From: a virus
Virus record (IMG/VR): IMGVR_UViG_3300028103_000009
Reading direction: 5' to 3' (one strand)
Length of the DNA stretch: 64,000 bases
This document shows positions 34,196-59,372 of the stretch, one piece after another; the first letter of the stretch is position 1, and each line of letters opens with the position of its first letter. The notes under the pieces were generated by a model. That model did no database searches and was not told the origin of the DNA. It saw only the letters and a list, made by a program, of their open reading frames with translations. Made by a program: the position numbers and the translations under genes.

Positions 34196-34369
34196 TTATG
34201 CTGCCGCGAACAGAGCGCGGAACTGGCTCATCACGTTGTGGAAACTACGCAGCTCTGAGATGGTGAACTCTTCAGTGTTGTTCTCGATGTAGATCAGGGT
34301 TTCCAGCACGGGCAGCTGACCCAAGCGTTCCTGTATGCCTGCTATGACTTTGAGATCTTGATTGATCAT
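34196..34369 (-). CDS. early hypothetical protein (missing from the ORF track)
   Basis: Own promoter and AGGAGCGA RBS; MINQDLKVIAGIQERLGQL...RALFAAA*. Confidence 0.6.
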   Translation of the reverse strand: MINQDLKVIAGIQERLGQLPVLETLIYIENNTEEFTISELRSFHNVMSQFRALFAAA

Positions 34370-34678
34370 CATTCGCTCCTTTGTTAATATGTGTGTAGTA
34401 TACTACCGTTCGCCCAAACTGTCAACCAGTCGGGCTGTTGCAGAATTGCCACATCTTGAACTGATCCCCGCGCAGCCCCATCAAGATTCCTTCGTAGTCC
34501 CTGTAAGAGCAGCAGGCCCAAATCTCGCGAGGTTCGTAGCGGTATGTGCCGTAGCCTTGACCCCAATCGTATTCACGTGGAGTGTTGTGCTGTGTGACTA
34601 TCCTACGGGCCGTGCTGGCTCGCTTGTAGTACTTTTCCATACGGCCCGAGCGGACCTCGTAGACGATCCAACCTGACA

Positions 34679-34951: not shown

Positions 34952-35430
34952 AGTTGCTCCTTTGTGTGTCAGTATGTGTATTGTACTGCCAAACTGCGAA
35001 AAGGTCAACCGATTTAGGTGTTGTTTTTTTGCAACAGTAGATCGCCACCCTCGGCCCGATCAACGATGAATTTAACCGTGTCCTTGAAGCGGCTGCGGAT
35101 CTCTCGCTGTAGTCCCTCAGCTGTAGAGCTCTGTCCTACGAACTGCTCTGTGTCCTTGCGATAGGCATAGAGCTGGCCTTGATGCTGCTCGATACGGATC
35201 TGGATCAGCTCGGGTTCGGCACTCTCATCGCTGTCCTCGGTGATCTCCCGCTCTAATTTCTCGCGTAATTTACGAAGGTCTGCGGGCTTGATGCCTAGAT
35301 CCTTGAGCACTTCGCCGAGGATCATACGGAAGAACACACGCTCTACGAAGCGGCCCAGAAGGAATCCCAGGATGAATACCGTGAATAGAATTAAGATCAG
35401 TTCCATGAATTATTTACTCCTAAGAGAGAT

Positions 35431-35465
35431 AAAAAAAGGGCGGATGCATCGAGTACACCCGCCCT
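35431..35465 (-). terminator. Rho-independent terminator
   Basis: Minus strand GGGCGGGTGTA-CTCGA-TGCATCCGCCC-TTTTTTT. Confidence 0.75.
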
Positions 35466-35491
35466 GTGCCTATTACCGGGAGCGAATCGGA

Positions 35492-35797
35492 TTAGGCAGT
35501 AACAGCTTCACGTGTCTCGACCTTAGCTGCAGGCGCAGCAAGGGTGACGCCGTTCTTCTTGGCTACGTAAGCGATGGCAGCTTCCACTGCAGGCTTACCT
35601 GTGCCATAACCTGTAGAGTACAGGTGCTGAGCGATCTCAGCCTTGGTCATCTCGTTAGGAAGGTTGATCAAGTCAACGTCCTTGTGACCATTCTTTGCGA
35701 GGATCTTGATTCGCATCGAGTCATTTGCGAAACGGATCTTAGTCTTACCATTCAGCGTCGAAACGCCAGCTACGGAGAACTTCTTTTCAGTTGCCAT
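35492..35797 (-). CDS. early hypothetical protein
   Basis: Promoter at about 35880; KIRFAND motif; followed by a conserved hairpin and terminator. Confidence 0.7.
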   Translation of the reverse strand: MATEKKFSVAGVSTLNGKTKIRFANDSMRIKILAKNGHKDVDLINLPNEMTKAEIAQHLYSTGYGTGKPAVEAAIAYVAKKNGVTLAAPAAKVETREAVTA

Positions 35798-36369
35798 TTT
35801 AATGTGCCTTTCTGTGTGTGTTTAAAAGTATACCAACCCTATTTGGTATGCTACTAATATAGCATAGCCAATCCATACTGTCAACCATTCGGTTTACCAA
35901 AATCTCCTAGTTTGGTGACCCGAATAGTCACAGCTTCCTTCTCATCTAGAGCAGCGATGAACTCGTCGTCATAGATAAGATCCTGCATGGCCAGATCGAT
36001 CATCTGCTCGACCCTAGCCTCGTCCGCTGTGCCCTCTCCGGCACAAAGGACTTCAAACTTGAACTCAAAGGTTCGCTTCATTTTCCCAAAACTCCTTGCG
36101 TAGCATGAACATCGTGTATGCTTCTTTGTTTAGGTATATACTCGACTTTTCTGCATCCCAAGCCCAAACCGGCTGTGTGCCGTCGAAGTATTCTGGGCGA
36201 GCGCAGAACAGTTCTCCGCTGGCGCCAAACTGTTGCCAAAGCCAGTTGCGGGCGCGGACCCATTGCTTGACACGGATCACACGCCCTTGCCCTGTGTAGC
36301 CAGTGAACTCGACCCTGTGACTAAAGCGTTCATGCCCGTCATAGCGTCGGTCCAACTTGACCACATTCA

Positions 36370-36993
36370 TCACAGCGGCTGCTCCTTGGCTTCGGCACCC
36401 TCACGGATCCACTGTGTGAGCTCTTCCTCATTCTCACGCTCATACTCTTCCATGCACTCGCTGATGCCAAAGCACTCATCCAAGTCCTCAGGAATCTCAT
36501 CGCGGACCTGTTTGCTGGACATCTCGCTCAGGTCATAGTTGTCTTCACAGCCATCTTCAAAGACGCCAGCGAAGCACATGCCGGGCTCATAATACATGGC
36601 TCGCACTTCATAGCCCTGCTCGGTCAGTTCTTGGTAAACGCCCACTGGAGGAGCCCAAGCACTGTCAAAGCCCACGCTCATGCTAGTGCCATCCTCGCTG
36701 ACGTCTGCAGGGTTGCAGTCATCGCCACCCACATCCCACTTGGTGCCCCAACGGCTGGTCTGGAAACTATACCAATCAGCATGTCCATACTTCTCAAGGT
36801 TGGACTTCTGCTGTGCTTCGTGGGCCTCACGCTTGTCCTCGCCCATGAAGCCTGACACTGTGTCAGTGAGCTCTTTAGGAGTAGGAATCACATGCTGGCA
36901 AAACTCTCCACGATTGAATGCGTCTGCGAGAGCACGGATTTTCTCAGGGTCCTTGTGGCTGATTTCCACATAGTTGTTGCACCAGTTTGGCAT
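36370..36993 (-). CDS. DUF1281/YubB ferredoxin-like domain protein
   Basis: MPNWCNN, WGTKWD, FDSAWAPP and YYEPG motifs. Confidence 0.75.
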   Translation of the reverse strand: MPNWCNNYVEISHKDPEKIRALADAFNRGEFCQHVIPTPKELTDTVSGFMGEDKREAHEAQQKSNLEKYGHADWYSFQTSRWGTKWDVGGDDCNPADVSEDGTSMSVGFDSAWAPPVGVYQELTEQGYEVRAMYYEPGMCFAGVFEDGCEDNYDLSEMSSKQVRDEIPEDLDECFGISECMEEYERENEEELTQWIREGAEAKEQPL

Positions 36994-37716
36994 AGGTTCG
37001 CTCCTTAAGTTAAGTTAGTATTATACATCCAAAATCAGTCAAAGTCAACTGAACTCACTTCAACACCGTCTTCGATCTCTGTGTATAGATCGTAGATCTT
37101 ACTCTGGATGATCTTCTTCTGGCCGGCTCTGATCGGGAGGGCCATGGCCAGTTCCTCGATCTGATCCAAGAGTCCATCAATCGCTTGTAGATCATGACCA
37201 ACTGCATTAAAATCTCTCATATCGCTCTCCTAAGTGTATGTGTATTATACACTCAGCGTTTCAAAATGTCAACCAAATGTTGATTGGCCAAGTTCTGGTC
37301 TACCCGATCCACGAACCTCTGCTCGATCTCACGTGAGGCTCGATCGGCGATCTGGCTCACGGTCCTTAGGATCTTAGCCTGGGCCATCGCGGTCGTTTCC
37401 GGGGCACTCAGGGCATCCAGAGCGCGGCGTAGATAGTCCAGTTCCTCGGGCTTGATCACTTGTAGGCCTCTGCATTCTGGATCATCATCGCGCCACAGCC
37501 CATGATCATCAATCCCACGGTAGAAACCAAGGCACCCAGCAAAAGACCGGAGTTGTCCAAGCTCTGCTCAATGCCGCCCACACCGAAGATCGTTACGAGC
37601 AGTCCTACGATAAAGCAGAACATTCCGGATTTTTCCATTGATGACTGTGTCATTGATTCGCTCCTAAGTTGTTTAGTATGTGTATTATACGACCAAAATA
37701 CCAATCTGTCAACCGA

Positions 37717-37974
37717 TCAGCGCCAATCTTTTTTGTCGCCGTAGCGTTCGTTGTAGTCGTAGCCAGCCATGTATTCGGCCACGCTCTCAGGATCCGTAAC
37801 CTCAACGCGGGGACCTGACTCGCCGCCAACTCCACCGTAGTGCGGCCGACGAGCCCGGCCGTAGTAAGAGTCTGCTGAGCCACGATCGTAGAGGCAACCG
37901 TGTTCTGAGCGCAGGAACTGCCAGCCCTTGAGGGCACGGACCACACGCTCTTGTTCTGAAATCTCTGGATACAT
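37717..37974 (-). CDS. early hypothetical protein
   Basis: Own promoter and RBS; HGCLYDRGSADSYYGR. Confidence 0.65.
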   Translation of the reverse strand: MYPEISEQERVVRALKGWQFLRSEHGCLYDRGSADSYYGRARRPHYGGVGGESGPRVEVTDPESVAEYMAGYDYNERYGDKKDWR

Positions 37975-39503
37975 TCTTCGCTCCTTTTATCTAACTATGA
38001 TGCTAGTATAGCACCAAACGTCCAAACTGTCAACCAAAATCCTTTAGCAGTCAGGGTCAAAATCGTGCCACTCCTGCATCTCGTCGGGTTGACCGTCGTA
38101 ATCCGCATCAGAATCGCTGCTTAGGATTCGTTGGACTTCTTCTGGGGATACACCTAGCGTTTCGCTGATGGTTAGGATCGTGCCTTCGTCCTGGCCAAAA
38201 TCATCACCCATATCGTGGGCCATGCTCATCACTTCCAGTTCCAGATTTGCAAAGTATCCCATAACTCGCTCTCCTTAGTATGCCTACAGTATAGCACCAA
38301 AAATCCAAACTGTCAACCAAAATCTGCAGAAAAGAAAAAGGTGTGGCTTTTATGCCACACCCGCCAGTTCCATAGCGTAGCGTTCCCAGTAATCGTCGCT
38401 GTCCTCAAACTCTTCTACGAGATCGTCGTATTCATCGATGATCTGCACGTATTCACCGCGCAGCTGGTAACGATACACATGATCGCCGTTTACGACCACG
38501 TCCCCTGATCTACGGCCCCCTACGAACTCGATCTGCTCACCATCGATGCTGTAGATCGTGCTGTTGTCGGTATACTTGAGATGGATATACATGGGCTTGC
38601 TCCTTTGTTTACCCGTGTAATGTAGCAGCTATAGCCCGAGCTGTCAACCAATCTTTTTGCAGGGCTGGTATGCTGTACACGCATAGCTAGCCCCGGTCAA
38701 TTCGCTGCAGAATTACCTTCGGGGTTTAAGAAGAGCCTGGCTCTCCTTGCGCAGCCTGCCCGCTTCCTTGTACATACGGTCAGCATCCTCAGCTAGGGCC
38801 TTAGATCGTTCCTGTGATAGTTTGCTGCCCCCAAACTCACGATCCACGTAGTACTGGATTAACCTATGCTTGATCATAGTAGGCAGGTCCATACCATAAT
38901 CTTCCGGACAAACGAAACGGACAGGGCAACGGCCCCATCCGCCATATTCTAGGAACTCTGCGTAGTAGCGCCTATGATCTTTATTGTAAGCGTCGAAGGC
39001 CACTAAGGGCCTTGCGTAGAACTCTAGTTTACTCATTAACTGTTTACAGTTGAGTAAGGACTCAACTCATCCTCTATTAGGTCAGGACCACAGCCGTCCT
39101 CATCATCGAGGCTGTTGCTAGCGAGCCAGTCATGGACCATGCTCACAGGCACTCCAAGGGTCTCACTGATCATCCTAGGGCTAAGGCCTTCGATAAACAG
39201 TTGCTCGATCTCGTAAGCGATCTGATCTAGTCTGCTCATCGTGCCATCTCCTGGGAAGTTGTCTTAACCTTATCAACACCATGATCTAGCATACGAGCTA
39301 CGCCAGAGAATCCGACTTGCCCGAACACTATACCAGCTACAAAAACCACGACATATTTCAACATCTTGGTGCTCCTTTCTGTGTGTCAGTATCTATATTA
39401 TACGATCAATCTATCAATCTGTCAAGACCACTTACACGCATACGTGTAGCAGCGGGGCCTAGGGTACTGTGGCATTTTAGCCACAGCCCCTGGCACTCCC
39501 AAA

Positions 39504-40706
39504 TCAGGCTACCTCTTTCTCGTAGATCACAGTCTGGCCAAAGGGTGACTCAGCCTGTGTGTTTCCTTTAACGATAAAGATAGTATCGCAGTAGTCTTCC
39601 TCACCCCAACTACCGCAGGGGTAACCGTCCGTAAACATGATAAACTTCTTGGGCTGGATGTTCTGCTCACGCATGAACTCCCAGTTGGCTTCGAACATAG
39701 TTCCACCACCGCCCTGAGGCTCGTAGTCTACCAAGTCTTCGACGTTGTCGTGAGTGATAGTCTTGTGGTTATAGATCTCTGTGTCAAAGCACCACAGGTT
39801 GATGCTGAAGTCCTCATACTGATCCATGATACCCTTGATCTCGCTCAAGAATACAGTTGCATCCTCGTGCCCAATACTGCCTGACATATCCATAGAGATA
39901 GCGATGTCGATAGTAGTGGCTTCCTTCATGCCTGGAAGCACCGCACCTGAGTGCATACTCTTGCGGTTAGGGCGGGTGAAGGAGTAGTCGTTGCGGATGA
40001 TGCTTTGGATCTCTTGACGCACCAACTCACGCCAGCTGATCTTAGGCTCAGTCATGTCCTTGATCATACGCATGATACCTGCAGGAGTCTTACCTGCACC
40101 AGCGGCCGCGGCACTCTGGATCATGGCCTCTTTGATCTCGTCTTTGATGCGTTGTGCATCCTCTTTGGAGATGCTAGGGCGACCATCCTTTTGATCTTCC
40201 TTGCCGTCCTTGCCGCCGCCATCGCCTTCCTTGATGTGCTCGTCGAGAAGGTCACCAAGTTGCTTCAAGAGCTGGTCCATAGGAATCTTCTCTGCCTTGG
40301 CATACAGATCATCGTAGATCTCTTCCCAGGCCATACCACGATACTTTGGATCGTAGCAGATCTTAACCTCAGTGATCTTCTCGCCGATACGCTCGTCGAT
40401 AAGGATCTGATTAACAGCGAAGTCCTGTGCGATGTTAGACAGTTGACGATCGCGGCTACCAACACGACCAAAGTGGTCAAAGATGCAGTGGCAGATCTCA
40501 TGTGCAAACAGGAACTCTAGTTTCTTGATAGAAAGTTTCTCGATGAACTTCTTGTTATACATGAAGTCACGACCGTTAGTTGCCGCAGTCGGGCACCAGT
40601 CGCTGGCATCGAGCAGACGCATACGAGTAGCCATGTTGCCGAAGAACGGCTCCTTGAGTAGCAGTCCTACTCGGGCAGTTGTCAGTTTCTCTACGATCGG
40701 GTCCAT
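39504..40706 (-). CDS. metallopeptidase-like (HExxH) plus VWA domain protein (DUF2201-like)
   Basis: TAATNG, AHEICH, DMSGS MIDAS, GGGGT and FTDG motifs. Confidence 0.85.
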   Translation of the reverse strand: MDPIVEKLTTARVGLLLKEPFFGNMATRMRLLDASDWCPTAATNGRDFMYNKKFIEKLSIKKLEFLFAHEICHCIFDHFGRVGSRDRQLSNIAQDFAVNQILIDERIGEKITEVKICYDPKYRGMAWEEIYDDLYAKAEKIPMDQLLKQLGDLLDEHIKEGDGGGKDGKEDQKDGRPSISKEDAQRIKDEIKEAMIQSAAAAGAGKTPAGIMRMIKDMTEPKISWRELVRQEIQSIIRNDYSFTRPNRKSMHSGAVLPGMKEATTIDIAISMDMSGSIGHEDATVFLSEIKGIMDQYEDFSINLWCFDTEIYNHKTITHDNVEDLVDYEPQGGGGTMFEANWEFMREQNIQPKKFIMFTDGYPCGSWGEEDYCDTIFIVKGNTQAESPFGQTVIYEKEVA

Positions 40707-40818
40707 AACACGCTCCTTCTTAGTATGCTTCTATTATATGCTCTGTTTATTTATTTGTCAACCGAAAAAGGTGGGCGGGCGACCCTGAGAAGTCCCCGCC
40801 CTTTGGCGCTGGAGAGGT

Positions 40819-41901
40819 CTAGTTCTCCATGGCGCTCAAAACATACTTGCCAAAACGCTTATGGAACTCATCGAAGCTCTTCATCTTCGAAGCATCCAAA
40901 GGCAAGTCATAGTTGGTGAGCGCGGTCTTAGCACCCATAACTACCAGCTCAGTAGGGAAGTTATCCATCATGTAGCGGAAGAAGTTATCGGCACCCTCGT
41001 CCCAGTTCTTGACCTTCTTGTCTGCACGATCCTTGAGCTCGTAGCAGAGGCTAACGGTCAAAGAATACATCGCTGACACTTCCTTGATCTGGAGGTCCTT
41101 GACCTTGCCGTCGAGGATGTCACCAGCCTTAGGCATCTTGCCTGCGATCTTACGGTGAGCCATAAACTTCATGCTAAGGCCGTCACCAATAGCACCTGCG
41201 ACCAGAGTGTGCAGGGTATCTTGATCAGTGTCATCGTCCTTGAGCAGATCGCTCACGAACACCCAAGAACGCGGAGTTGCGAAGCTCTTGCTAGGGCTCT
41301 TAGGATCGAAGTCGTAGAGGTCCTGCTTGGCAAAGCCCACATAACCTACCACATCAGGGTGGACTTTGTTGAGCGTAGCCCAGTCTTGGAAGTCATCGAA
41401 GTCTACCTTCATCTCCAAGTGGACGAAGCGGTTAGCCAACGGAGCAGGCATACGGTAGGTAACACCACGGTCACCTTCACGGTTACCAGCGGCGACTACG
41501 TCAACGCCTTTGGGCAGGACATAGGTGCCAACACGGCGATTAAGGATCAACTGATAGGCCGCGGCCTGAACAGCAGGAGGAGCGGAGTTAAGCTCGTCCA
41601 AGAAGATCACAGCAGTGGACTCAGGATCCACAGGCAGTTCTGCGGGCGGTGCCCACACCATCTTGCCTACATCTGCATTGTAATAGGGGATACCCTTGAT
41701 GTCAGTGGGCTCCCAAAGAGCTAGGCGGACGTCGATGACCTCACGGTTGAGCTCATCAGCGATCTGCTTAACGACATCGGACTTACCAATGCCTGGAGGG
41801 CCCCACAGGAACACAGGGCGACGCACAGTCAGCGACTTGCGGATTGCCTTCTTGGCACCCTTAGGGCCAACTTGGCGAATAGAGATATCTTGCTTTGACA
41901 T
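40819..41901 (-). CDS. MoxR-like AAA+ ATPase
   Basis: GPPGIGKS, FLDELN, AAGN, PLANRF and TPRSW motifs. Confidence 0.88.
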   Translation of the reverse strand: MSKQDISIRQVGPKGAKKAIRKSLTVRRPVFLWGPPGIGKSDVVKQIADELNREVIDVRLALWEPTDIKGIPYYNADVGKMVWAPPAELPVDPESTAVIFLDELNSAPPAVQAAAYQLILNRRVGTYVLPKGVDVVAAGNREGDRGVTYRMPAPLANRFVHLEMKVDFDDFQDWATLNKVHPDVVGYVGFAKQDLYDFDPKSPSKSFATPRSWVFVSDLLKDDDTDQDTLHTLVAGAIGDGLSMKFMAHRKIAGKMPKAGDILDGKVKDLQIKEVSAMYSLTVSLCYELKDRADKKVKNWDEGADNFFRYMMDNFPTELVVMGAKTALTNYDLPLDASKMKSFDEFHKRFGKYVLSAMEN

Positions 41902-41973
41902 ACTAGACCTTTCTTTCTCAGGGTTAAAAACGCTCTCTCAGTATCATTATTGTAGCACCAAGTGAGCTCTTTG

Positions 41974-42609
41974 TCAACCAACTATTTTGACGTAGTTCAG
42001 TTGTGTTGTATTATCGCCACGGAGTGCCTTGACCTTGGCCTTGACCCGCACACTGCCCTCAAGGGCTTTGCCGAACCAGAAGTCCACGAAGCTCTCACCC
42101 ATACGGGCGTTGACGCGATACTTGTCGAAGTTAGGGTTATACCTTGCGCTGACCACAGTGATCTCCCCGACGATGGTATCACCTACAGCAGCCTTGAGCT
42201 GCTCAGAGGCATAGATCTCTCGCTTGAGTTCCGTACGGGCCTGATCGCGCACAGCCACGCTGGGTAGGCAGCTGATAACAGCGAACTCGTACATGTTTTT
42301 ACCTGTGAACTCTTCCATAGCAGCGATCTTCATAGCCGTGGTTTGGAAATCGTTCATCTTACCTGTGAGCGCCAACAGTGTGTAGGATTTGAAGTGATCC
42401 CGGGCGCTGCGGCCAGCAGCATAATCGGCCTCAGTGATCTGGCTGAAATCGCCCTCGCGGAGCCATTGCTTGACCATAGCTTTGTTGGCTCGTTTATCAA
42501 CTACGTAGCCTTCGTCAGTGTAACGGCCTTTGTCCTCTTTGAGGTACTCACCGTTGATGCGTTGGGCAGCGGCTGCGGCACCCCAAACTTGATCTGCTGT
42601 AAACTGCAT
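41974..42609 (-). CDS. early hypothetical protein
   Basis: Own promoter and AGGAGCGA RBS; possible OB-like C-terminus. Confidence 0.65.
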   Translation of the reverse strand: MQFTADQVWGAAAAAQRINGEYLKEDKGRYTDEGYVVDKRANKAMVKQWLREGDFSQITEADYAAGRSARDHFKSYTLLALTGKMNDFQTTAMKIAAMEEFTGKNMYEFAVISCLPSVAVRDQARTELKREIYASEQLKAAVGDTIVGEITVVSARYNPNFDKYRVNARMGESFVDFWFGKALEGSVRVKAKVKALRGDNTTQLNYVKIVG

Positions 42610-42740
42610 AGCTCGCTCCTATGTCCTAACTATGCCTCTATTATACGGTATTTACTCAGGGCTGTCAACCAAAAAAACTGTTGTATTTTTGCAACAGGCG
42701 GGAGTGCCGGCGAGGTGTGGCTTTTATGCAACACAGGGCC

Positions 42741-42768
42741 AAAAAGAAAGGGCCCCTAAAGGACCCTT
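42741..42768 (-). terminator. Rho-independent terminator
   Basis: Minus strand AAGGGTCC-TTTAG-GGGCCCTT-TCTTTTT. Confidence 0.7.
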
Positions 42769-42820
42769 CCCAAAACCCGCCCCGGGAGCGAATCGGCTTG
42801 GATTTTGAACCGATAAGCTC

Positions 42821-43093
42821 TTAGAGCGTAATGCCTAGAGCCTTAGCCTTGTAGCCAAGAGCAACGATCTCACGGCTTGGCTTGCCCATGACGTATTCGG
42901 TAACAGTCACGCCATTACCAGCTGTACGGCTGTTAGCGTAAACAGCATAACCATGCTGACGAATACGGCTTGCTTCTGCAGCCAGGTTACCCACGCCAAA
43001 ACGCTTCTCAGCTTGGCTTTGGGTTAGAGCAGCACCATTGTAGAGTGCATTGAAAACCTTGTAGGTCTTCGTATCTTTGTTGATGAACTTCAT
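42821..43093 (-). CDS. small putative winged-HTH DNA-binding protein
   Basis: LTQSQAEKRFGVGNLAAEASRIRQHGYAVY pattern. Confidence 0.5.
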   Translation of the reverse strand: MKFINKDTKTYKVFNALYNGAALTQSQAEKRFGVGNLAAEASRIRQHGYAVYANSRTAGNGVTVTEYVMGKPSREIVALGYKAKALGITL

Positions 43094-43358
43094 AGTTTGC
43101 CTTTTCCTTTAAAGTTAATATAGCTGTAGTTCAACAGCGTACCTTTATATTACAACAACCTTACCGCAAAGGTCAATGGCTTATTTTGCCGTTTTAACAC
43201 GCACCTGGGGCACTGCCATCAAAATAGCAGCGGCCAACCACGTCCAAAAGGTGAACGGGATCTCATGCGTAGCACCAAACAGCGTGTTCCACGCCCAAAT
43301 AACGGCCAGTGGACCAATCGCGATAAAGAATATAATCAGAGCTAGAAGCCCTACGAGT

Positions 43359-43598
43359 TTAAACAGAGTGTTCATGATCTTCATCCTTACACATTATTTT
43401 AGCCAGCTCAGCTTCGAGCTCCTTCTTGTTCTGGCGCTTGCGACGCAGAGCTGTACCACCCATGTAGACCCTTGAGTAGTGCTCTGCGCAGTAGCTCTTG
43501 CCTGGCATCACGGCACTCAGGCAAGTGAACAGATCTGTGTCACGGACTGGGTCCTTGTCGGGCCCAATCCATTGACATGTTTTGGGTGTCCATTCCAT
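43359..43598 (-). CDS. small Cys/His protein resembling the GcrA C-terminal domain
   Basis: TCQWIG...FTC...GKSYCAEH..RVY compared with GcrA TCRWPIG...FC...PYCxxH..AY. Confidence 0.45.
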   Translation of the reverse strand: MEWTPKTCQWIGPDKDPVRDTDLFTCLSAVMPGKSYCAEHYSRVYMGGTALRRKRQNKKELEAELAKIMCKDEDHEHSV

Positions 43599-43599
43599 G

Positions 43600-44670
43600 T
43601 TAACCTCGCTTCATGACAGTGACTTCAGCCATGCTCTGCCAGTTAGTAGGAAAGCTCTTGCGCAGGTCTGCGACTTTGAGCACCGTACGCAGGCTCAGCT
43701 CACGCATCTTGCCGCGATTCTCGATGATGTAGTCTACGACTTCATCGCGTTGTACATCCTCGAACTCATAGGTATCCAACATGCCGTCAGTGACGATCTG
43801 CTTGATACGAAGCACCTTTTCACGATCTGTATCCATTTGGAGATCGATGTAGTGACAGCGTGACTCCAAAGCCGCCAAGTGATCCTGCAGTTTCTTAGAA
43901 CGCACATTCTCAAACTTGATGTTAGTGATAAAGATAGCACCTGCCTTGAACTCAAACTTGTCCGGCACTCCCTCAGAGCGCAGGATACGGCTGTCAGTGT
44001 TCCACGAGATAGTACGCTTCTTAGAGCTATCCAGAGCAGCCTTCAAGATGTTAAGGCTAAGATCATCTAACAGCACAGAGTCGCAGTCATCGAACACGAT
44101 AACGTTGCCTTTTTCGCTGTAGTGATAGAGCTTGCTGTACAGACCCACGGCACTCATAGCACCCTTGACGATCTCGTATTTGGGCTTGCGATTGCCCAGG
44201 GTATCAAAGAGATCGTCTCGCGACAGTACTTCTTCGACACCAAAGCTCTTGCCCACACCTGGAGGGCCAGTGACGATCATAGCTCGCACGGTGCCCTCTT
44301 TGACTGCTTTGGTCATGTCCTTGAGTACTTGGAAGCGGCCACGCAGTCGCTCTACGATCTGCTCATCAGTCTCGTGTGCGACTACTTCATCCGAAACCTT
44401 GATCTGCTCTAGGCTCTTGTCACCTGCGGGCGTAGCAGGCACTGCCCCAGAGACTACCACGTAGCTTTGTGCTGATGCACAACGGATGCGGATTGAACGA
44501 TCTGGAATACCAGCATTCTTTGGGTATACTGAGCCACCCGCAACAGTAACATAACCGCCATTGGCGCCTTCTTTGTATTGTTCCACGAGCTCGAAACGGT
44601 TACCCGCCATGGACACTTCAGCGCCACGGATCTTATAGGTACCTTCGCGCATCTCGATGATTGCTGGCAT
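43600..44670 (-). CDS. P-loop AAA ATPase
   Basis: GPPGVGKS, VFDDCD, FITN and ALESRC motifs. Confidence 0.8.
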   Translation of the reverse strand: MPAIIEMREGTYKIRGAEVSMAGNRFELVEQYKEGANGGYVTVAGGSVYPKNAGIPDRSIRIRCASAQSYVVVSGAVPATPAGDKSLEQIKVSDEVVAHETDEQIVERLRGRFQVLKDMTKAVKEGTVRAMIVTGPPGVGKSFGVEEVLSRDDLFDTLGNRKPKYEIVKGAMSAVGLYSKLYHYSEKGNVIVFDDCDSVLLDDLSLNILKAALDSSKKRTISWNTDSRILRSEGVPDKFEFKAGAIFITNIKFENVRSKKLQDHLAALESRCHYIDLQMDTDREKVLRIKQIVTDGMLDTYEFEDVQRDEVVDYIIENRGKMRELSLRTVLKVADLRKSFPTNWQSMAEVTVMKRG

Positions 44671-45183
44671 AAGTCTTCGCTCCTATGTTGTTTAAAATCG
44701 TATTATAACAGGGCCCGAAGGCCCTGTCAACCTATTTGTTAAATACCCTGGAAAGCATCAAGGGCTTTCTGTGCGTCTGCGTCTAGCATAGCACGATCTT
44801 CGGCACTCTGACGCTCGCGCTCTACAGTCTTGCGGTAGTCTTCCAGCTCTGCCTTTTTGGCTTCCATAGCAGGCCACACTACATCGCTGGGGTTAAGGTA
44901 AGGACCCGTGTAGTCCACCTTGTCTTCTTTAAGGGTAATCTCTCCGGAACGGATGCCTTCAAAGACCATGCCCCACGTGGGTTGCTGAGGACGGCCTGTG
45001 GGCCCAAACAGTTCTACTGCTTTAGCCTGCACCTTTTCACGTGCGATCTCGTTGAGACGACGTACGAAATACTCGCGTTGCGTTGCTTCCATTTTGCGCT
45101 CCTGTGTGTGTTAAACAAGTCTGTATTATACAGGGTTTTGGGTACCCTGTCAACCCCAGAAAAAACCCTTAGAGTCCAAAGGG

Positions 45184-45621
45184 TTATGCTGCTTGCCTAT
45201 CCTCGCAGTACTCGTAGAAGCGACCAATGGGCCCATCGAACAACGCAGCATTGGTCTCGCTCATGGTGAGCCCAAACATGTTGCAGCCACGATCGCGGAC
45301 CTGTACGTGTATGATGTTATCGCGCTCGTAGACGTGATACTCATAGTCCTGGCCGCAGTCTGCAGCAGTCACGGGGTAGAGATAGAACTGCCCGGGGCCA
45401 TCTTTGAAGTGTGCGACCAGTTGCGCAGCCAAACAGCCCATACCGTTGAACACCACACGATCTTCACCACGTAGGCCGTTGACTAGTGTACCCTGTGTGA
45501 GGAAACGTGCTAGCTCAGCACCGTGCCCGCTGGGGTAGCCGTCGTACTGGCGATAGAGATTGATGATGGCACCCTCAGTAATGTCGCCATCGTAGACAAA
45601 AGTAAGACAACGTGTACCCAT
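45184..45621 (-). CDS. conserved phage early hypothetical protein
   Basis: MGTR...YRQYDGYPSGHG; own promoter and RBS. Confidence 0.7.
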   Translation of the reverse strand: MGTRCLTFVYDGDITEGAIINLYRQYDGYPSGHGAELARFLTQGTLVNGLRGEDRVVFNGMGCLAAQLVAHFKDGPGQFYLYPVTAADCGQDYEYHVYERDNIIHVQVRDRGCNMFGLTMSETNAALFDGPIGRFYEYCEDRQAA

Positions 45622-46060
45622 AGTTCGCTCCTGTGTGTTAAGTGTGTATTATAGCAGAGGAGCTGCACCTTGTCAACCCCTCTGCTGCTGTTAGCTTATT
45701 CCATGCTAGCAAGCTCGTCTTCTTGCATGCCTTGCTCTGTAAAACGCACTTCGTAGCCTAGTGCTGTGCTAATAGCATCTTCAAACGCTGTGTCTGTGTA
45801 AATGTCCCACGTGCTGTTGTGTGTAACATAAATGCTCTTATAGTCATCTTCTTCTGTTACACTAATCGCAGTCACACGCACTTGTCTGCCTGCTTCACAG
45901 CCCCACAAGCCGTCACCAGCTGTAGTAACTGTAAAGTCGCAGTCGTATTCACGTGTTAACATGCCGTCTTCGTTGTGCTGTGCTGTAAGTGTTAGCATAT
46001 CGCGCTCCTTGTTAAACATGTGTGTATTATACACTCTCTAGCCAAAATGTCAACCGTTTT

Positions 46061-46381
46061 TTAGTCGCCGCGCACATCTGTGTTGAGCGTGGGCTTAATT
46101 TCGCGCCGGATGCGTACCTCTTCTTTATGTGCCGCAGCTTTGCCTCGGATCACAGCATGTACTATGATAGTGATGTCATCCTTGCTCGCGACATCTCGCA
46201 GAGCGCAGCACAGGGCCCAATCTTTGTTCTCTGAATGGGCACGATAGAAGTGCTTGGCAGCGCGAGCACGTACACTCTTATTAATAGTAGTCTCAGTCTT
46301 AGCTGTAACGCCGATGTAGTTGCCCGCAGGTACCTGCAGCTCGTATACGATGTGATTCCGGTCTGTACGTTTGGCCCGCAT
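46061..46381 (-). CDS. GIY-YIG-like small protein
   Basis: IVYEL...YIGVT...R...H, E...PTLN. Confidence 0.55.
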   Translation of the reverse strand: MRAKRTDRNHIVYELQVPAGNYIGVTAKTETTINKSVRARAAKHFYRAHSENKDWALCCALRDVASKDDITIIVHAVIRGKAAAHKEEVRIRREIKPTLNTDVRGD

Positions 46382-46462
46382 TGCTCGCTCCTTCATTATG
46401 CATATAGTATAGCACCCCTAGCCCAATCTGTCAACCAAAATCGCCAACTCGTTTAAAAAAAG

Positions 46463-46747: not shown

Positions 46748-46824
46748 TGGTGGGCCCACTTGGATTCGAACCAAGGACCAATGGATTATGAGTCCACTGC
46801 TCTAACCGTCTGAGCTATAGGCCC
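46748..46824 (-). tRNA. tRNA with CAT anticodon, most likely tRNA-Ile2 (lysidine type)
   Basis: GGGCCTA/TGGGCCC acceptor stem, TAGCTCAG..GGTTAGAGC D-arm, CTCATAA anticodon loop, GGTTCGAATCC T-arm and encoded CCA; overall similar to ileX-type tRNAs. Confidence 0.9.
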
Positions 46825-58726: not shown

Positions 58727-58736
58727 GGAGCGAATC

Positions 58737-59372
58737 ATGATCAAGTTGACAAAAAATCAACTAGATCCCAACGGTTACTGGGATAAACCCATAGGTAAGA
58801 TGTTATACATACCCTTGCCTGAAGACCTTGCGCTATTTGATCAGAACGGATACGACCTAACTATCCTGGAACAGCATTTTGCCAACACCAATGACGCTAT
58901 CACACAACAGCATCGTAAACATCGTACAGCACTAAAACAAAACTGGTACACACAGGAAACAAAAAAGGAAGGTGCTGTCCTTAATCACAGCCTATTGTTT
59001 GAGCGTAAAGGATACACAGGAGCTGCCTTGGAGCAGCTTAAATTTTGGGCCAAGACTCTGCCGTTGATATACAAGATAATAGCCATGCGTCCTAAATGGG
59101 GTTTAGACTTTAGCATGGACTATGTTGATCGTGAAGGAAATGCTTTTGAAATACTCCATTGGGAGTACGATGGGTTTAGCTACGAAGAAATATGCGCAGT
59201 TAAAGATAAAATCGAGCCCGTGATTAACAGCATAGATTTTGAGCAAGCAGGACGCGATCTGCTTAAATACAAAGACAAATGGCATCATTTAGATTTTTTC
59301 GCACAGAGTGATTGGAAGTGTGATTTTTTTGGCATTCCCAAAGAACGATTTAAGATGGTGATCTGGGAATGA
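58737..59372 (+). CDS. hypothetical protein
   Basis: AAGGAGCGAA RBS; 211-aa ORF. Confidence 0.65.
   Translation: MIKLTKNQLDPNGYWDKPIGKMLYIPLPEDLALFDQNGYDLTILEQHFANTNDAITQQHRKHRTALKQNWYTQETKKEGAVLNHSLLFERKGYTGAALEQLKFWAKTLPLIYKIIAMRPKWGLDFSMDYVDREGNAFEILHWEYDGFSYEEICAVKDKIEPVINSIDFEQAGRDLLKYKDKWHHLDFFAQSDWKCDFFGIPKERFKMVIWE

Follow-up and report, generated by a model that had tools for sequence, protein, structure and literature searches.

The stretch of DNA analysed here, 64,000 nucleotides (nt) long and called the window below, corresponds to bases 79066-143065 of the 147,329-bp virus record IMGVR_UViG_3300028103_000009 from IMG/VR, the completeness of which is put at 38% by CheckV; it stems from an uncultured jumbo phage of river water. 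Between positions ~30000 and 52000 the window contains an early block of small genes transcribed from the minus strand, with a G+C content of ~50% versus 40-43% in the remainder of the record; a tRNA-Met gene (46748-46824) lies inside this block. Two genes of the block, one encoding a 90-amino-acid (aa) winged-helix protein and the other a 101-aa protein, end in a 3' untranslated region (3'UTR) that holds an identical 15-mer. An earlier note on this DNA had proposed that the 15-mer displays, in a hairpin loop, the complement of an extended ribosome-binding site common to early genes, and that the two form an antisense shut-off circuit. We found that the loop and the extended site (GGAGCG(A), hereafter the tag) are present or absent jointly in related phages, and base pairing between them is, with moderate confidence, the best reading of the element.

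Results

Two early genes carry an identical 15-mer between stop codon and terminator

The 15-mer occupies positions 42782-42796 (copy A) and 35476-35490 (copy B) of the minus strand with zero mismatches (0.04 expected by chance), and the whole 147,329-bp record contains exactly these two copies and no third. Copy A begins 24 nt past the stop codon of the winged-helix gene (42821-43093, carrier A), copy B begins 1 nt past that of the 101-aa gene (35492-35797, carrier B), and a strong intrinsic terminator lies 3' of each. The placement between stop codon and terminator given in the earlier note was thus exact for both copies. The copy A 15-mer forms an apical hairpin with a 3-bp stem and the 9-nt loop AUUCGCUCC, a sequence kept in relatives. 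The whole hairpin, delimited by covariation, spans 42770-42809 and places the apical hairpin above a 3x3 internal loop and a lower stem of 8-10 bp; the intrinsic terminator abutting it (42741-42769) was recognised by its fold (z-score -4.2). The identical apical hairpin of copy B (35476-35490) belongs to a hairpin at 35467-35498, delimited by its fold and by relatives, the 5' arm of which contains the stop codon, and is likewise abutted by an intrinsic terminator (35431-35464, fold z-score -4.9).

The tag is a shared extension of early ribosome sites

CGCTCC, the plus-strand complement of the tag, was found at every position for which it had been claimed, except that one site lies at 46386 instead of 46387. 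On the minus strand, 11 of the 13 GGAGCG sites in the window are located 6-9 nt ahead of an early start codon, which upholds the statement that at least ten early genes use the extended site. The extension is real, and it belongs to a repeated promoter-leader cassette. In this ~45-nt unit, carried by ~18 early-block genes, a sigma70-type extended -10 box is followed by ~20 nt of A/C-rich leader, AGGAGCGA(A), 3-5 nt, and ATG. The spacing from tag to start codon is constant (6-7 nt) and that from tag to -10 box variable (15-22 nt), which is the pattern expected of an RNA-level signal.

The tag GGAGCGA precedes the gene at 46061-46381 (tag at 46385-46391). Further tags on the minus strand are located at 45625-45631 (gene 45184-45621), 44677-44683 (43600-44670, an AAA_16 protein), 42613-42619 (41974-42609, 211 aa), 37978-37984 (37717-37974), and 36998-37004 (36370-36993); the tag at 37658-37664 (37456-37653) complements all nine nt of the loop, and the one at 34373-34379 (34196-34372) gives the best predicted duplex, at -14.3 kcal/mol. 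Weaker tags stand ahead of a DUF2201/VWA protein gene (GGAGCGT at 40710-40716, gene 39504-40706) and of the genes at 44739-45092 and 45696-45998 (GGAGCGC at 45096-45102 and 46002-46008, respectively). Outside the early block, a tagged 211-aa gene on the plus strand (58727-59372) combines the tag with three further loop-complementary bases (GGAGCGAAUC); no other strong target is predicted outside the block.

Both carriers have AAAGGCA ahead of their ATG, as had been claimed, and lack the tag. None of the 61 distinct carrier leaders checked in relatives contains it either (0 of 42 for the winged-helix gene and 0 of 19 for the 101-aa gene).

The loop is fixed while the stems covary

Relatives were gathered as 80 loci, with the neighbouring ATPase as query, and another 69 with contig L067 as a second query; a pattern scan added at least 100 further stretches among the matches listed. 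The largest related contigs are 364 kb. By its ATPase the closest cultured relative is the Pseudomonas jumbo phage PA5oct, at 50% identity and with a different gene layout, and megablast of 35000-43500 returned zero matches among cultured phage records. Hairpins were classed by the gene that carries them: class A follows the winged-helix gene, class B the 101-aa gene, and class C the AAA_16 gene.

The element is kept in at least 100 related river and lake phage contigs with diverged flanks, and almost every member of one clade has the 15-mer at the two syntenic positions. Of 67 distinct instances, about 50 have the core unpaired, with an apical stem of 3-4 bp on top of a lower stem of 6-10 bp. 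In a covariance-model alignment of 53 class A sequences, all ten pairs of the lower stem showed compensatory changes, with 95 double-change cells against 34 in shuffles; none of 500 shuffles reached 95, and sliding the partner columns collapsed the signal. The internal loops of class B vary in length, and this class was assessed by covariance-model alignment and a flank-swap test, in which native flanks out-paired swapped ones (p=0.004, compared with p=3e-6 for class A). The hairpin display proposed in the earlier note stood in part on the window itself, where copy B folds in this manner but the minimum-energy fold of copy A differs; for copy A, it is the unpaired cores and covarying stems of the relatives that back it.

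Among 205 distinct contexts of the loop 9-mer, we found seven apical stems (CCG/CGG, CUG/CAG, GUG/CAC, UUG/CAA, AGG/CCU, UGG/CCA, and UCG/CGA), the nine loop bases being invariant while the three apical pairs vary in at least seven compensating forms. Two C-to-U changes were the only substitutions seen in the 7-nt core, and these retain G-U pairing with the tag. Class C hairpins, located behind the AAA_16 gene of other relatives, have the loop on top of the terminator itself or of tandem hairpins, with other complementary triplets in place of the apical stem, and in contig L284 the 7-nt core is unpaired and lies upstream of a different hairpin. With the loop fixed and the stems variable across classes, the constrained part is the single-stranded loop sequence. 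The element follows three carrier genes with no relation to one another, frequently as tandem copies, and is a module that moves from one 3'UTR to another. In two near-identical contigs (L005 and L010), deletions that are natural variants or else artefacts of assembly remove the end of the winged-helix gene and, with it, hairpin A either entirely or in its 5' half.

The exact reverse complement of the 15-mer was also observed, between a late-type TAAATA box and the ATG of genes for secreted or membrane proteins, in six AT-rich contigs (L183, L185, L186, L197, L205, and L206), one of which (L206) has a gene in common with the end of this record. In this position the ribosome site itself would sit in the hairpin loop. 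As for a candidate pairing between the 15-mer and such a 15-nt leader, no copy of this kind is present in G004, a complete relative of 364 kb, and L183, L185, L186, L205, and L206 are fragments without early regions.

Loop and tag occur together

Among the 7-mers of 26 early leaders in the window, the one complementary to the loop core ranks in the top three by frequency. Scoring of the loop against the 1150 candidate start sites in the 147-kb record placed the 11 strongest duplexes on nine distinct genes, all from the early block except for one tagged gene at 58737. The predicted duplex energies were -12.8 to -14.3 kcal/mol for tagged genes and -3.1 kcal/mol for the carriers, while pairing of the 16S ribosomal RNA (rRNA) tail at the tagged sites amounted to about -6.5 to -8.4 kcal/mol. 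This genome-wide comparison made the loop the best predicted partner of the tagged start sites. It also agrees with the escape that the earlier note had foreseen for the carriers, which are tag-free in all relatives.

In loop-bearing relatives, GGAGCG is read by 385 of 791 distinct GGAG leaders, and A is the next base in 77% of those. Orthologues of the 211-aa gene at 41974-42609 keep the tag in ~40 of 47 distinct leaders, the remainder of the leader being widely divergent. In a tree of the ATPase, the hairpin clade (62 rows) uses the tag, and its sister clade (53 rows) has neither hairpin nor tag; every loop-bearing locus uses the tag. Two long branches inside the hairpin clade, L067 and L075, lack both. 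L067 retains the same promoter-leader cassettes with GGAGCAA at the tag position, lacks the winged-helix gene, and has neither hairpin nor terminator after its 101-aa homologue. More distant members of the 101-aa family behave alike, in that L282 has hairpin and tag and L283 has neither. A compensatory loop for GGAGCAA was sought in L067; the one heptamer after a stop codon (L067:7008) was rejected, being partly paired and, in count, at chance level for the 58.7-kb contig.

Promoters and proteins of the carrier genes

Both carriers are preceded by a canonical host-type early promoter. The promoter region of carrier A (43122-43176, minus strand) has TTGACC, an 18-nt spacer, and TAATAT, and that of carrier B (35827-35884, minus strand) has TTGACA, a 17-nt spacer, and TATATT. 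At the predicted transcript start of each there is a short 5'-proximal hairpin (43122-43137 and 35830-35849, minus strand), the stem of which covaries in relatives and which the tagged genes lack. This hairpin could be a 5'-end stabiliser or an operator.

The product of carrier A is assigned to HTH_39 and phrog_4973. The 101-aa protein of carrier B is a member of a very large family of environmental sequences, with 1134 cluster representatives at E 0.001 or better, and has neither a Pfam domain nor any other known domain. Its fold was modelled confidently, with a predicted local distance difference test score (pLDDT) of 84.5, but neither Foldseek (cut-off E 0.001) nor VIA-align (cut-off Z 3, best score 2.8) matched the model to a known fold.

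A separate conserved word, CCGGCACTC(C/T), lies at 42700-42708 on the minus strand, upstream of the promoter after the copy A terminator and 5-15 nt from its -35 box, and is found in 44 of 57 distinct relatives, while in L059-L062 it is inverted. Its complement, GAGTGCC, occurs ten times on the transcribed strand of the early block (nine of them inside genes) versus three times on the other strand of the whole 147 kb. The word may be a DNA-level site.

Hints from metatranscriptomes

The stretch is present in six river metatranscriptomes as assembled contigs only, from which neither transcript ends nor levels are derivable. In the four that we examined, the winged-helix gene has the highest contig depth, joined in one run by the 101-aa gene. 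One adapter-joined contig end lies at 42782, where the 15-mer ends on the RNA strand, and another at 35828, where the 5' hairpin of the 101-aa gene has its foot. The two adapter junctions are oriented as a minus-strand RNA would give, and we take these observations as hints.

Discussion

Base pairing of the loop with the tag would explain, in a single scheme, the fixed loop, its display on changeable stems, the conserved extension of the ribosome site beyond what 16S rRNA reads, the exemption of the carriers, the joint absence of loop and tag, and the substitutions compatible with wobble pairing. We infer such pairing in the cell, and the repression that would follow from it, from conservation, structure, complementarity, exemption, and co-occurrence. 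Each element would form the structured 3' end of an abundant early transcript, made up of a variable lower stem, a short apical stem, and the fixed loop, followed directly by the terminator, and its active form may be either the messenger RNA (mRNA) tail or a processed 3' fragment. The loop would pair with GGAGCGA(AU), which in 8 to 13 early genes makes up both Shine-Dalgarno sequence and spacer; the predicted duplex of 7-9 bp has about twice the stability of 16S rRNA tail pairing at the same sites. Because of this twofold stability, the loop should compete with the ribosome and lower the translation of tagged genes. Tag-free genes, namely the two carriers and some other early genes, would escape. 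In this way the phage probably tunes its early protein synthesis through RNA-RNA pairing.

Several points weigh against this interpretation. Both carriers are early genes with host-type promoters, and a simple early-to-late shut-off does not follow, since the hairpin RNA would be made alongside its proposed targets and not after them; beside the shut-off of the earlier note, a dosage limiter is just as possible, and so is a delay in which two unusually stable transcripts build up slowly. In the window, copy A has a minimum-energy fold that pairs the 15-mer with an upstream near-complement and takes ~3 kcal/mol to open, and in class B a ribosome that terminates at the stop codon would cover the loop. 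The seed, at 7-9 bp, is also short. The earlier note had looked to conservation and covariation of loop and tag: the loop is conserved, the tag is conserved gene by gene, and the two are jointly present or absent, but compensatory change was not seen, as we found no lineage with loop and tag both altered to a new matching pair. Moreover, the placement of L067 and L075 inside the hairpin clade has a support of only 84-86, and the co-occurrence perhaps traces to three evolutionary events.

Of the other explanations, the one with the best claim, which we nevertheless regard as rather unlikely, takes the hairpin to be the binding site of a phage or host protein that acts on the 3' end, through termination or read-through in the manner of nut or put sites, processing, or stability, the complementarity to the tag being incidental. 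A protein reading the loop would also give a fixed loop on variable stems, and the constant position of the hairpin, 0-3 nt before an intrinsic terminator or at the terminator tip, and its two to three copies per genome would suit such a function. What it leaves unexplained is the exact match of loop and tag, the tag-free carriers, and the joint loss of both, and in L284 the core lies outside the adjoining hairpin altogether. Read-through might serve the gene after terminator B (35014-35406, minus strand), which has no host-type promoter of its own; against this, AGGAGTAAATA stands 5 bases ahead of its ATG and fits a TAAATA signal like that of T4-type late promoters, and most downstream genes have their own promoter, which makes read-through unneeded. 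We noticed no boxA-like partner and no arginine-rich N-like protein, neither of which was systematically searched for.

The 7-bp word could instead be a duplex DNA site, used in either orientation, through which a phage protein such as the winged-helix product of carrier A blocks transcription just downstream of early promoters. The word at the start sites and the word in the hairpin are indeed the same duplex in opposite orientation, and the winged-helix gene, hairpins, and tag co-occur, with L067 lacking all three. We consider this improbable all the same, as covarying stems and exposure of the word in a loop make sense for a single strand only, the word is positioned by the start codon and not by the promoter, and class C contigs have their hairpins after a different gene. 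We give even less credence to pairing in cis only, whereby the loop would close the tagged start of the next gene on read-through transcripts, leaving that gene to be translated only from its own promoter. This would fit copy A, which in most relatives has the tagged 211-aa gene within ~170 nt, but a strong terminator and a promoter separate the hairpin from that start site, the gene after copy B in the window is tag-free, the following genes vary among relatives, and non-coding stretches follow the class C copies.

Pairing of the loop with tagged mRNAs in trans remains the interpretation we prefer. A wider proposal, which we advance tentatively and would place just short of probable, is that these jumbo-phage relatives use a private translational code, in which three bases added to the Shine-Dalgarno sequence set apart a class of early genes, and a small modular hairpin, duplicated into the 3'UTRs of various strongly expressed early genes, shows the anti-tag and keeps the marked mRNAs from ribosomes by titration, so that an RNA regulon operates without a protein repressor. 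What is known of early shut-off in large lytic phages comes mostly from proteins of T4, namely RegB, which cleaves at GGAG, and the translational repressor RegA; if true, an RNA reading a private extension of the ribosome site would be a different solution. The element is a new and strongly covarying RNA motif present in at least 100 environmental contigs, and it could be established as an RNA family and used as a marker for phages of this group. As a further use, tag and anti-tag might together make an orthogonal translational switch.

Comparison with known systems

We found no paper describing the element, and the phage small RNAs returned by a literature search (those of PAK_P3, and LPR1 and PreS of lambda) include none aimed at a common tag of early ribosome sites. 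Mimicry of a tRNA T-arm, which has a 5-bp stem and a 7-nt loop with G53, A58, and C61, was considered and rejected, as by eye the 15-mer differs from the T-arms of these phages at three positions, including the equivalents of G53 and A58, and neither ARAGORN nor the Rfam tRNA model reported anything at the 15-mer copies. A scan of the window with all Rfam families gave only the tRNA, at 46751-46824, and no match to C4; in a relaxed scan of both 3'UTRs the best rows reached at most 24.8 bits against cut-offs of at least 41.

The nut sites of lambda consist of boxA and a boxB hairpin with a GNRA-like pentaloop. Like them, the phage element is a hairpin of ~15 nt found twice per genome, after an early regulator-like gene and before a terminator. 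Unlike them, it has a 9-nt loop that complements early ribosome sites, and it abuts the terminator; no boxA-like word was seen by eye beside either copy, no dedicated search having been made. In Staphylococcus aureus, an anti-Shine-Dalgarno motif in the 3'UTR of icaR mRNA reportedly pairs with the ribosome site of the same mRNA. The phage 3'UTRs likewise hold such a motif directed at ribosome sites, but icaR pairing takes place within one mRNA, whereas the phage carrier mRNAs are tag-free and any pairing must join different mRNAs.

CpxQ, SroC, DapZ, and MicL are base-pairing small RNAs derived from 3'UTRs in enterobacteria. As in these RNAs, the putative regulatory sequence of the phage is located between a stop codon and its own intrinsic terminator, in relatives as well, and a conserved short seed is complementary to conserved sites in several predicted target mRNAs, which it could hit in trans. 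The phage seed is placed in a hairpin loop, however, and not in a single-stranded 5' stretch as theirs is, and its source is a phage with jumbo-phage relatives, the early genes of which it would target by way of a common private tag. The c4 antisense RNA of P1 and P7, encoded in the immI operon, blocks translation by pairing its exposed loops with a ribosome-binding region. It resembles the phage element as a phage RNA with candidate loop pairing at such a region, but c4 controls one site in its own operon, whereas the element described here is predicted to address a class of genes.

RNAIII and RsaE of S. aureus and the alphaproteobacterial 'cuckoo' RNAs mmgR and CcsR bind Shine-Dalgarno sequences through C-rich loops. 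With these the phage element shares a CUCC-type loop motif set against GGAG-type ribosome sites of many targets, and mmgR was among the best sub-threshold Rfam rows (15.1 and 12.6 bits versus a gathering score of 41). Their anti-Shine-Dalgarno motif is generic, whereas the phage loop adds three bases, UCG, that would make it specific for a tag that 16S rRNA does not read. Together, these comparisons suggest that the element would work most like the seed RNAs derived from 3'UTRs and the RNAs that display an anti-Shine-Dalgarno sequence in a loop, such as P1 c4, RNAIII, and the cuckoo RNAs.

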